DNA of 64,000 nucleotides. Source: Escherichia phage p000y. Each line of letters starts with the position of its first letter. Position 1 is the first letter of the stretch. The notes beneath the pieces are model-generated. The model was not told the DNA's origin and searched no databases. It saw only the letters and a program-made list of their open reading frames with translations. Shown here one piece after another: positions 17,353-18,887 of the stretch. The position numbers and the translations under genes were made by a program. The DNA is taken from sequence record MK047718.1; one strand, 5' to 3'.

Positions 17353-17425
17353 TGGGAATTAGCCAAGTTGGTAAGGCACTGGATTTTGATTCCAGGATGC
17401 AAAGGTTCGAGTCCTTTATTCCCAG
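17353..17425 (+). tRNA. tRNA-Gln (anticodon UUG)
   Basis: Manual cloverleaf: acceptor TGGGAAT/ATTCCCA, anticodon loop TTTTGAT, T-arm AAAGG-TTCGAGT-CCTTT. Confidence 0.8.
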
Positions 17426-17426
17426 C

Positions 17427-17513
17427 GCGAGAATGGCCAAATTGGTAAAGGCACAGCACTTAAAATGCTGCGGAATGATTTCCTTGTGGGTTCGAGTCCC
17501 ACTTCTCGCACCA
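17427..17513 (+). tRNA. tRNA-Leu (anticodon UAA), long variable arm, CCA encoded
   Basis: Acceptor GCGAGAA/TTCTCGC, anticodon loop CTTAAAA, T-loop TTCGAGT. Confidence 0.8.
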
Positions 17514-17518
17514 AATTT

Positions 17519-17592
17519 GCGGATATCGTATAATGGCATTACCTCAGACTTCCAATCTGATGATGTGAGTTCGATTCTCATTATCCGCTCCA
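17519..17592 (+). tRNA. tRNA-Gly (anticodon UCC), CCA encoded
   Basis: Acceptor GCGGATA/TATCCGC, anticodon loop CTTCCAA, T-loop TTCGATT. Confidence 0.8.
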
Positions 17593-17602
17593 ATTTAATT
17601 TA

Positions 17603-17676
17603 CTCCGTGTAGCTCAGTTTGGTAGAGCGCCTGATTTGGGATCAGGAGGTCCAAGGTTCAAATCCTTGTATGGAGA
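17603..17676 (+). tRNA. tRNA-Pro (anticodon UGG)
   Basis: Acceptor CTCCGTG/TATGGAG with G-U pairs, anticodon loop TTTGGGA, T-loop TTCAAAT. Confidence 0.75.
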
Positions 17677-17678
17677 CT

Positions 17679-17768
17679 GGAGGCGTGGCAGAGTGGTTTA
17701 ATGCACCGGTCTTGAAAACCGGCAGTCGCTCCGGCGACTCATAGGTTCAAATCCTATCGCCTCCGCCA
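17679..17768 (+). tRNA. tRNA-Ser (anticodon UGA), long variable arm, CCA encoded
   Basis: Acceptor GGAGGCG/CGCCTCC, anticodon loop CTTGAAA, T-loop TTCAAAT. Confidence 0.8.
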
Positions 17769-17773
17769 ATTTT

Positions 17774-17849
17774 GCTGATTTAGCTCAGTAGGTAGAGCAA
17801 CTCACTTGTAATGAGAAGGTCGGCGGTTCGATTCCGTCAATCAGCACCA
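17774..17849 (+). tRNA. tRNA-Thr (anticodon UGU), CCA encoded
   Basis: Acceptor GCTGATT/AATCAGC, anticodon loop CTTGTAA, T-loop TTCGATT. Confidence 0.8.
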
Positions 17850-17850
17850 A

Positions 17851-17925
17851 GGCCCTGTAGCTGGAAGGTTCAAGCAAGCGACTCATAATCGCCAGATGGT
17901 GGTTCAATTCCACCCAGGGCCACCA
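17851..17925 (+). tRNA. tRNA with anticodon CAU (Ile lysidine-type as in T4, or Met), CCA encoded
   Basis: Acceptor GGCCCTG/CAGGGCC, anticodon loop CTCATAA, T-loop TTCAATT. Confidence 0.7.
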
Positions 17926-17937
17926 AATTATGAATTA

Positions 17938-18024
17938 GGGGAGTTATCCCGTAGAGGTAGCGGTGTGGACTGTAAATCCATTGTCATTGCGACTCGGGTG
18001 GTTCGACTCCATCACTCCCAACCA
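17938..18024 (+). tRNA. tRNA-Tyr (anticodon GUA), long variable arm, CCA encoded
   Basis: Anticodon stem GTGGA/TCCAT with loop CTGTAAA, T-loop TTCGACT; acceptor has G-A at pair 1-72, so ends are approximate. Confidence 0.65.
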
Positions 18025-18028
18025 ATTT

Positions 18029-18103
18029 GGATGTGTAGCTCAATGGCAGAGCGATCGCCTGTTAAGCGATTGGTTATAGGTTCGAATCCTATCACGTCCG
18101 CCA
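18029..18103 (+). tRNA. tRNA-Asn (anticodon GUU), CCA encoded
   Basis: Acceptor GGATGTG/CACGTCC, anticodon stem ATCGC/GCGAT with loop CTGTTAA, T-loop TTCGAAT. Confidence 0.75.
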
Positions 18104-18107
18104 AATA

Positions 18108-18184
18108 CGAGGCATAGCTCAATTGTATAGAGCAACGGACTTCTAATCCGTAGGTTGAAGGTTAGAATCCTTCTGTCTCGACCA
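18108..18184 (+). tRNA. tRNA-Arg (anticodon UCU), CCA encoded
   Basis: Acceptor CGAGGCA/TGTCTCG, anticodon stem ACGGA/TCCGT with loop CTTCTAA, T-loop TTAGAAT. Confidence 0.8.
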
Positions 18185-18202
18185 ACTTTAAGTGAGGAAA
18201 AT

Positions 18203-18547
18203 ATGAAAGGCAATGTTTATCTGGTAGTTCATGATTTAACGTTTTATTTTAATGAATATGATACAGTTATTTCTCATCGATTGATTAATTCACTTTATCA
18301 GCATGCCGATTACATCTATGTTCAAAATGAATTCGGTCATTGGAAGTTCATTAAAAACCGTTCTGGGTTAACTAGTTTTGAATACTTTGACCGTAAAGAC
18401 CTTTTAAACGAAATTCCATTGCAACATCGGTTCCAGAAACGCGAATCATTATATTATTGCCGTCATATACCAAACGCAGAATGTGCCAATGAAGCGATTA
18501 ATCTATGGCGTAGACGTAGAGAACAAATTGATGATATGCCAAAATAA
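18203..18547 (+). CDS. hypothetical protein
   Basis: ATG 18203 with GAGGAA SD, immediately after tRNA-Arg; track ORF 18155 start overlaps the tRNA. Confidence 0.6.
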   Translation: MKGNVYLVVHDLTFYFNEYDTVISHRLINSLYQHADYIYVQNEFGHWKFIKNRSGLTSFEYFDRKDLLNEIPLQHRFQKRESLYYCRHIPNAECANEAINLWRRRREQIDDMPK

Positions 18548-18858
18548 GAAGCCGGGTCGCTACCGGTAAGTCGTCGGACTGATGTTCCCTGAGTAAGGAC
18601 TGGTCTTAATAAATCTTTATGATTCGTTAATATCCCCTTACATCACAGCAGAAACGGCGCACAGAATTATCGATTCGAGGAAATATCTTTGCCGTAAGCC
18701 GAGTAGCGTTTTTGACGGAACGTTCGGATATGGTCGAGATATGGCCTTTTAAAAATATTGAGTAGCGTCAACTGCTTAATAACCGGGTTCGAATCCCGGC
18801 GTTTCGTACAAACATTTGCCTTAGCAGGTGGGACCCCAACAAGGTTGCCGCAAGGCAT
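18548..18858 (+). ncRNA. putative stable small RNA region (position equivalent to T4 species 1/2 RNAs); contains a tRNA-like T-arm
   Basis: About 310 nt without a convincing plus-strand ORF between a CDS and a strong terminator; contains CCGGG-TTCGAAT-CCCGG T-arm-like hairpin. Confidence 0.3.
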
Positions 18859-18887
18859 AGCCCCTTCCGAAAGGTTGGGGCTTTTTT
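18859..18887 (+). terminator. rho-independent terminator (AGCCCC...GGGGCT + T6), copy 1 of a repeated stem-loop
   Basis: GC-rich hairpin followed by TTTTTT. Confidence 0.7.

Follow-up and report, generated by a model that had tools for sequence, protein, structure and literature searches.

The tRNA and stable-RNA region of Escherichia phage p000y, very probably the segB-free T-even allele, with homologs of rnaD and rnaC

We analysed a stretch of 64,000 nucleotides (nt) from Escherichia phage p000y (accession no. MK047718.1), hereafter the window, and followed up the region at positions 17353–18887, which holds an array of ten transfer RNA (tRNA) genes, an open reading frame (ORF) of 114 amino acids (aa), homologs of the T4 stable RNAs rnaD and rnaC, and an intrinsic terminator. 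The locus is very probably the standard tRNA and stable-RNA region of T-even (Tevenvirinae) phages, in the segB-free allele known from phages T2L, RB1 and RB3. Genes for tRNAs were called over the 64-kilobase window with ARAGORN and with the Rfam model RF00005 at its gathering threshold of 29 bits. ARAGORN found exactly ten, all on the plus strand and between 17353 and 18184, in the order Gln(UUG), Leu(UAA), Gly(UCC), Pro(UGG), Ser(UGA), Thr(UGU), a tRNA with anticodon CAU, Tyr(GUA), Asn(GUU) and Arg(UCU), arranged head to tail with intergenic gaps of 0–12 nt. The Rfam model returned the identical set of ten above its gathering score, nine of them at 60–74 bits with E-values of 1e-10 to 1e-14. 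The ten-gene cluster described in an earlier note on this DNA is therefore called at its coordinates by both predictors, tRNA-Tyr and tRNA-Asn included.

A search of phage records with the whole region (query 17250–18950) matched 1027 records, and in 272 of these 80% or more of the region is present. Shigella phage JK36 (Mosigvirus, Tevenvirinae) matches best, with 96.9% identity and annotated genes for the same ten tRNAs. The upstream ORFs at 15277–17255 are homologs of T4 57A, 57B, ipI and trna.4/.3/.2, as judged by the T4/JK36 gene order and by PHROG families. The order in T4 (NC_000866, T4t001-008 and T4s001-002) is Gln, Leu, Gly, Pro, Ser, Thr, Ile(CAU), segB, Arg, rnaD, rnaC, and that in the sequenced T2 record is Gln-Leu-Gly-Pro-Ser-[ORF]-Met-Tyr-Asn-Arg-[ORF]-rnaD-rnaC. 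In phages T2L, RB1 and RB3, segB is absent, and genes for tRNA-Met, Tyr, Asn and Arg are present together with extra ORFs and with RNA species I and II (Brok-Volchanskaya et al. 2008, PMC2330249). In crosses between T4 and T2L, segB homes into the segB-less allele and almost completely excludes the Met/Tyr/Asn/Arg block, and the preferred SegB cleavage site is located in the tRNA-Asn gene (PMC2330249). The counterpart of this site in the window is the 3′ part of tRNA-Asn at about 18079–18105 (GGTTCGAATCCTATCACGTCCGCCAAA), the boundaries of the 27 base pairs (bp) being our interpretation of the published text (PMC2330249). A tblastn search with T4 SegB detected no homolog in the window.

Of the segment carrying tRNA-Tyr and tRNA-Asn, at least 80% is covered in 432 records, among them those of T2, RB6 and wV7. 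Since the two genes occur together in hundreds of genomes, and since the crosses demonstrate homing of segB, T4 is the odd one out. The earlier note had read tRNA-Tyr and tRNA-Asn as inserted into the T4 layout; this has to be turned around, as it is T4 that carries the converted allele (PMC2330249). We also observed a version with 11 tRNAs in an IMG/VR contig (positions 4275–5292), in which tRNA-His(GUG) separates Asn from Arg. Tyr, Asn and His, the accessory tRNAs of T-even arrays, have G34 in common and read NAY codons.

The first six tRNAs are close to those of T4. tRNA-Gln(UUG), at 17353–17426 (67.4 bits), is 89% identical to its T4 counterpart and identical to it outside the anticodon arm, so the arm was swapped rather than having drifted. 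Its anticodon stem (arm at 17379–17395) is fully re-paired, with CUGGA/UCCAG here and UAGCA/UGCUA in T4, and loop positions 32/38 are U/U in the window versus C/C in T4. The next genes are tRNA-Leu(UAA) at 17427–17513 (64 bits; 86/87 positions identical to T4), tRNA-Gly(UCC) at 17519–17592 (63.3 bits; 73/74), tRNA-Pro(UGG) at 17603–17677 (66.8 bits; 75/75), the class II tRNA-Ser(UGA) at 17679–17768 (62.6 bits; 87/90) and tRNA-Thr(UGU) at 17774–17849 (72.9 bits; 73/76). The CCA end is encoded in tRNA-Ser of the window (17765–17768), whereas the T4 tRNA-Ser gene is without it; with the CCAG of tRNA-Ser, the position at which SegB cuts is shifted in T2L compared with T4 (PMC2330249).

The first seven tRNAs and the last had been reported to match the T4 set in the same order. 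By sequence this stands for six of them; the CAU tRNA and tRNA-Arg match by anticodon only, and their identities to T4 of 63% and 57%, respectively, indicate different alleles and not the same genes. The CAU tRNA (17851–17925; 59.9 bits), here compared with T4 tRNA-Ile(CAU), is labelled Met(cat) by ARAGORN. It is most likely a tRNA-Ile2, which would be lysidine-modified and read AUA, because its anticodon arm (AGCGA-CUCAUAA-UCGCC) and acceptor stem (GGCCC/GGGCC) nearly match those of E. coli ileX and are unlike those of metT. tRNA-Arg(UCU), at 18108–18184 (71.1 bits), is identical to that of JK36 at 64/77 positions. Its T-loop, UUAGAAU, has A56 in place of the near-universal C56 and its D-loop, AAUUGUAUA, has U19 in place of G19, two changes that appear to compensate each other in the tertiary G19-C56 elbow pair. 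This tRNA-Arg allele is present at 99% identity or more in 52 phage records and is distinct from the alleles of JK36, JS98 and T4. tRNA-Asn(GUU), at 18029–18103 (74.1 bits), is identical to the gene of T2.

tRNA-Tyr(GUA), a class II gene at 17938–18024, scores 30.2 bits. The ARAGORN drawing shows the G1·A72 mismatch that the earlier note had pointed out, with the A at 18020; besides it, C12 faces C23 in the D stem, and the T stem includes a G·U pair. As traits of the tRNA-Tyr family, the weak D stem and the variable arm account for the low Rfam score and for the labels "tRNA-OTHER" or "Pseudo" that some annotators give to homologs. The 14-nt variable arm, UGUCAUUGCGACUC, is the same in the tRNA-Tyr genes of the window, T6, rV5-like and T5-like phages, and is 2 nt longer than that of E. 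coli. When IMG/VR was scanned with the anticodon arm of tRNA-Tyr, 120 loci were obtained, of which only two were close relatives and most were unrelated tRNA-Tyr genes. Position 72 is C in JK36, two IMG/VR contigs, T6 and an rV5-like phage, all of which read ...ACUCCCC-A-CCA and so form a G1-C72 pair. When we searched with 50 nt centred on position 72 (17996–18045), A72 was not found in the 730 matching records, none of which was 100% identical; 399 of the 730 fell in the 95–99% identity band, and the top matches listed were identical at 49/50 positions. With C72 in all relatives checked and A72 in none of the 730 records, the mismatch is, judging from these sequences, a single C72A change private to this genome and not a trait of the tRNA-Tyr family. 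The change reflects a recent mutation or else an error in sequencing, and its likely effect is a weaker tRNA, not an added function.

Behind tRNA-Arg lies the 114-aa ORF (18203–18547, plus strand), which is preceded by the Shine-Dalgarno sequence GAGG and belongs to an unnamed PHROG family (phrog_3355, E-value 2e-50); it has no sequence match in Pfam, NCBIfam or PDB. It is the counterpart of the second ORF in the T2L tRNA region and is 69% identical to the ORF at the same place in T2. The ORF is present in 425 phage records, nearly all of them T-even-type phages of Enterobacterales, as two sequence types (at least 90% and about 69% identical), and a relative of 30% identity is found in Pectobacterium phage PM2. 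The earlier note does not mention this ORF, but its stable-RNA stretch begins at 18548 and leaves room for it. The ORF, of 345 nt, separates tRNA-Arg from rnaD in the window, and an ORF likewise stands between the two in T2 and JK36, so the position of rnaD directly behind tRNA-Arg is a feature of the T4 allele and not of the family.

The stretch downstream of the ORF, which the earlier note had put at about 310 nt, measures 340 nt (18548–18887). Its other statements about this stretch, namely that it is devoid of a credible ORF, contains a tRNA-like T-arm, ends at a strong terminator and is consistent with small stable RNAs, were borne out, the last by alignment with the annotated T4 misc_RNAs rnaD (species 2) and rnaC (species 1). 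The rnaD homolog (18544–18663, plus strand) is identical to T4 in 103/121 alignment columns, and its start overlaps the stop codon of the 114-aa ORF. Its ends are conserved (48/51 over the 5′ 50 nt and 28/32 over the 3′ 32 nt) and its central hairpin has diverged. The predicted fold comprises a 5-bp hairpin with a 7-nt loop and a long closing stem; compensation is confined to the central hairpin, and both ends are invariant in nine sequences, so that the closing stems are predicted ones. The rnaC homolog (18670–18808, plus strand) is identical to the annotated T4 rnaC at 137/139 positions over its full length. Its first 58 nt (18670–18727) are identical to T4 and to the published 58-nt RNAC oligonucleotide (PMC9697503), the T-arm-like hairpin CCGGG-UUCGAAU-CCCGG lies at 18784–18800, and the 3′-end, as predicted from alignment with T4, would read ...CGUUUCGUA. 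RNA folding places two further plus-strand hairpins behind rnaC. The one at 18817–18857, a 3′ trailer, is also kept in T4 after rnaC and in JS98 after rnaD. The other is the intrinsic terminator at 18859–18887 (AGCCCC-UU-CC GAAA GG-UU-GGGGCU followed by a U run), a GC-rich hairpin which a simple terminator scan missed because of the 2x2 U·U internal loop in its stem. The T4 version has a perfect 9-bp stem, and the PhAPEC2 and G28 records annotate a "terminator" under the match.

Two ORFs overlap rnaC and the terminator, one of 74 aa at 18667–18891 (minus strand) and one of 49 aa with a TTG start at 18758–18907 (plus strand). Equivalents are annotated as "hypothetical protein" in many T-even genomes; the T2 record, for example, has three small coding sequences over rnaD and rnaC. 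Both are almost certainly spurious because of the RNA covariation described below. A total of 809 phage records contain the rnaD-rnaC region; hardly any annotate it, or else "hypothetical protein" ORFs have been placed over it. Rfam gave no match to a family for rnaC or rnaD even at permissive thresholds, and ARAGORN called neither a tRNA in 18544–18887 nor a transfer-messenger RNA (tmRNA). An antisense Plastid-ycf2 match and the sX4 and YrlA matches in Rfam lay far below their thresholds and were set aside as artefacts of tRNA look-alikes.

Homologs of rnaC are 139–141 nt long, always lie inside a tRNA cluster and usually directly follow a tRNA gene. They were found in T4, T2, T2-like contigs, Kanagawavirus (Entb_45, Q7622), Gelderlandvirus (Melville), Mosugukvirus (PM2) and a Klebsiella phage; BLAST searches from Melville and PM2 yielded no relatives beyond Tevenvirinae of Enterobacterales. 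A scan of IMG/VR with an rnaC motif returned 17 loci, 6 of which were chance matches in unrelated contigs. In the stretches examined, JS98 has rnaD without rnaC (2495–2700), whereas Entb_45 (2501–2648), Melville (2423–2577), PM2 (1466–1605) and kv_tblp5 (1504–1644) have rnaC without rnaD, which makes rnaD and rnaC independent modules. All the copies in these five phages are unannotated.

A consensus fold of rnaC was computed with RNAalifold from 11 distinct sequences, taken from Tequatrovirus, Kanagawavirus, Gelderlandvirus and Mosugukvirus phages, an unclassified Klebsiella phage, three unclassified IMG/VR contigs and the window. It is a four-way junction of 43 pairs, in which 97% of the cells are paired and 22 pairs have changed on both sides. 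When the columns were slid by 1–3, only 42–51% were paired, with 2–6 pairs changed on both sides. None of 500 shuffles reached the observed values, although this control overstates the significance, as only 11 related sequences were available. The end stem of 7 bp joins the 5′-terminal CGAUUCG to the 3′ strand CGUUUCG, with covariation of A-U to G-C and replacement of both U·U mismatches by U-A in PM2. Adjoining it is the T-arm-like stem of 5 bp with its 7-nt loop. The long arm of about 65 nt has been rewritten in sequence between genera with its pairing kept. The remaining elements are a near-invariant single-stranded linker, UUAAAAAU in the window, of which AAAAAU is invariant, and a 10-bp hairpin with a conserved CGUCAA loop, most of which is invariant. 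An alternative pairing of an internal acceptor strand, CGGAACG (18717–18723), with the 3′ CGUUUCG, which would give a tRNA-like domain of 93 nt, was rejected: it breaks in Kanagawavirus (A·C) and in Melville.

The leader of the array (17246–17352, 107 nt) differs from that of T4 by one base. It contains a motif resembling a MotA-box middle promoter (ATATGCTTTAAGAATTATTTGTTATTAT, 17256–17283, plus strand), found with the pattern (a/t)3TGCTTnA-N11-13-TAnnnT about 70 nt upstream of tRNA-Gln and identical in T4, which may act as a middle promoter. All late-promoter motifs found (TATAAATA) lie farther upstream, in the trna.3 and trna.2 homologs (16699 and 17007). None was found inside the cluster or before rnaD and rnaC (17300–18900), though T4 RNAC and RNAD are classed as late RNAs; both are detected during T4 infection, RNAC by northern blot as well (PMC9697503, PMC3014915). 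Expression of the tRNAs is likewise known from the literature for T4 and T6. In classical work on T4, the tRNAs were found to be made as a polycistronic precursor and processed by host enzymes. The ten tRNAs of the window would similarly be transcribed as one precursor and cut out by the host tRNA-processing enzymes, and transcription would continue through the 114-aa ORF into rnaD and rnaC and stop at the intrinsic terminator.

Codon usage fits the tRNA supply. All cognate codons are more frequent in a heuristic set of 84 non-overlapping ORFs from the window (17,664 codons) than in 36 annotated E. coli K-12 genes (12,557 codons), with enrichments of 1.3- to 6.4-fold: AGA 6.4-fold, AUA (the would-be cognate of tRNA-Ile2) 3.3-fold, ACA 2.9-fold, UCA 2.3-fold, AAU 2.2-fold, GGA and UAU each 2.1-fold, CAA 1.6-fold, UUA 1.45-fold and CCA 1.3-fold. 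AAU and UAU have the second and the fourth largest absolute excess among the 61 sense codons, so tRNA-Tyr and tRNA-Asn fit an explanation by codon supply as well as the T4 set does. The main job of the tRNAs is very probably the extra decoding of A/U-ending codons, which a phage of 37% G+C uses far more than E. coli. tRNA-Tyr at least may also buffer against host nucleases that destroy tRNA-Tyr, such as Septu and the PtuAB of retron-Eco7. Septu cleaves tRNA-Tyr in the variable arm; the plating of T6 under Septu was restored by overexpression of tRNA-Tyr or by its SegB-driven amplification, deletion of the tRNA region sensitised T6, and T4, which is without tRNA-Tyr, cannot escape (PMC13096335). 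Retron-Eco7 is countered by the tRNA-Tyr of T5 (PMC11555353). The earlier suggestion that the extra tRNAs are adaptive against anticodon nucleases is therefore backed by experiment for tRNA-Tyr, in T6 and T5, but the nucleases concerned cut the variable arm and not the anticodon (PMC13096335, PMC11555353), and codon supply explains Tyr and Asn equally well.

Several points weigh against this account of the locus. The promoter is a motif match only, and neither the phage nor the E. coli codon set is weighted by expression. Septu also cleaves the tRNA-Tyr of T6, which works by dosage (PMC13096335), and a single, unamplified and mismatched tRNA-Tyr copy may give little protection; we found no experiment in the literature that ties tRNA-Asn to a defence system. 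Concerning the tRNA likeness of rnaC, RF00005 had no match in 18544–18887 at an E-value of 10 or less, the best hit being tRNA-Sec at 16.6 bits (E-value 5.7), and the T-like loop of Kanagawavirus rnaC reads UGCAUGC in place of UUCGAAU, so that mimicry of tRNA is not kept in every detail.

Among the rival explanations, it is conceivable, if somewhat unlikely, that tRNA-Tyr and tRNA-Asn are kept mainly as spare parts that replace host tRNAs cleaved by defence systems, with codon supply being incidental. The rescue of T6 from Septu by a tRNA-Tyr that differs from that of the window at 3/87 positions and the failure of T4 to escape without one (PMC13096335) agree with this, as does the variable arm shared with the T5-like tRNA-Tyr that counters retron-Eco7 (PMC11555353). 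The related contig that adds tRNA-His beside Asn points the same way, with Tyr, Asn and His sharing G34 and NAY reading. tRNAs of this class are attacked by colicin E5-type nucleases. However, AAU and UAU are among the largest excess demands, so supply alone explains retention; the rescue from Septu needed overexpression or SegB-driven amplification, and the window is without SegB; E. coli and phage tRNA-Asn gave no rescue from PrrC170, and no defence that targets tRNA-Asn was shown. The two roles are in any case not mutually exclusive. We are similarly doubtful that tRNA-Tyr of the window is defective or decaying, with C72A on top of a weak D stem harming its processing, EF-Tu binding or stability, so that nine tRNAs are supplied. 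Its score barely above the Rfam threshold, the three irregularities in the drawing, the C72 kept in all relatives checked and the "tRNA-OTHER" or "Pseudo" labels of homologs could all be read in this way, and even the C72 version in T6 has been described as relatively unstable (PMC13096335). Many tRNAs, however, tolerate one terminal mismatch, and A72 is possibly just a sequencing error. The identity elements of bacterial TyrRS are A73, the anticodon and the long variable arm, and all of them are intact in the gene.

For the downstream region, the alternative that 18548–18887 is a mere structured 3′ trailer and terminator of the ORF, or two decayed tRNA pseudogenes, with no function of its own, appears very unlikely. 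It would agree with the lack of matching Rfam families, with the lack of a late-promoter motif within 17300–18900 and with 50 years without an assigned function (PMC3014915), and the tRNA-like ends and T-arm-like hairpin of rnaC would fit descent from a tRNA gene. Against it, the length of 139–141 nt and the 43 pairs of rnaC are kept across genera despite the rewritten long arm, and the 22 compensatory pairs, together with the invariant single-stranded AAAAAU and most of CGUCAA, argue for selection on the RNA. Moreover, neither rnaC nor rnaD depends for its presence on the other or on the ORF, both are always located in tRNA clusters, and discrete stable RNAs have been detected in T4 (PMC9697503). 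A convergent change in rnaD also speaks against it: in a 2025 evolution study, all lines of phage BW-1 evolved on ECOR34 acquired the same single-nucleotide polymorphism, located in rnaD (PMC12685909). By our own mapping, this change (record position 164264; about 18611 in the window) is A to G on the RNA strand and turns CACAG...CUAUG into CACAG...CUGUG. The new sequence agrees with that of T2 and regains a C-G pair of the central hairpin, a hint that the structure of rnaD is under selection. A structural reading is absent from the BW-1 paper, which puts rnaC upstream and rnaD downstream, opposite to the order in which they are transcribed (PMC12685909).

The end stem and T-arm-like hairpin of rnaC imitate the acceptor/T-arm half of a tRNA, and this tRNA-like top half would plausibly account for excision and stability like those of a tRNA. 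We put forward only as speculation, and as an improbable one, that rnaC is a tRNA mimic which presents its UUAAAAAU linker and CGUCAA loop and acts in trans as a decoy or inhibitor of a host tRNA-binding enzyme or a tRNA-targeting nuclease, with rnaD as a second, host-tuned module, at which the pair-restoring change in BW-1 hints. If that were true, the tRNA cluster would carry two RNA factors for host manipulation that are widespread in Tevenvirinae and almost never annotated.

The locus is an ordinary textbook region in an already described allele found in hundreds of phages, and as such adds nothing new to the field. It does join three established themes, namely codon supply in AT-rich phages, the warfare of homing endonucleases (tRNA-Asn holds the SegB target) and escape from Septu and retron immunity by means of tRNAs. 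For annotation, it matters that rnaD and rnaC lack annotation or lie under spurious "hypothetical protein" ORFs in most public T-even genomes, and that the atypical tRNA cluster is that of the reference phage T4. The fold of rnaC backed by covariation and the modular distribution of rnaC and rnaD are concrete handles on, and not answers to, the 50-year-old question of their role.

Compared with canonical tRNA, tmRNA and YrlA, rnaC is alike in the acceptor/T-arm geometry formed by its end stem and the 5-bp stem with the UUCGAAU loop. It differs from a canonical tRNA in having an arm of about 65 nt and a 10-bp hairpin instead of an anticodon arm or a recognisable D arm, and in an end stem with two U·U mismatches and no encoded CCA. 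The tRNA-Tyr of the window shares with those of T6, rV5-like and T5-like phages the variable arm UGUCAUUGCGACUC; unlike the T6 gene, it has A72 instead of C72 and no adjacent segB to drive its amplification, and an anti-defence role would be assigned to it by analogy.

With T4, the locus shares its position after 57A-57B-ipI-trna.4/.3/.2, its orientation, the Gln, Leu, Gly, Pro, Ser and Thr tRNAs (89–100% identical), the leader with its MotA-box motif, the terminator module and a nearly identical rnaC. The differences are that T4 has segB between the CAU tRNA and tRNA-Arg and is without Tyr and Asn, that its CAU and Arg tRNAs are the divergent alleles described above, and that its rnaD directly follows tRNA-Arg where the window has an ORF in between. 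From the T2L, RB1 and RB3 type the window differs in that it alone has A72 in tRNA-Tyr, and in a tRNA-Arg allele which is unlike that of JK36 and common to another subset of phages; the T2 record, in turn, has an ORF at the place of tRNA-Thr and an ORF after tRNA-Arg that is the 69%-identical one. In all other respects the resemblance to this type is close: Met(CAU), Tyr, Asn and Arg follow the Gln-Leu-Gly-Pro-Ser block without segB, tRNA-Arg is followed by an ORF and then by the stable RNA species II and I, and the tRNA-Asn gene is identical to that of T2, with the SegB target included.

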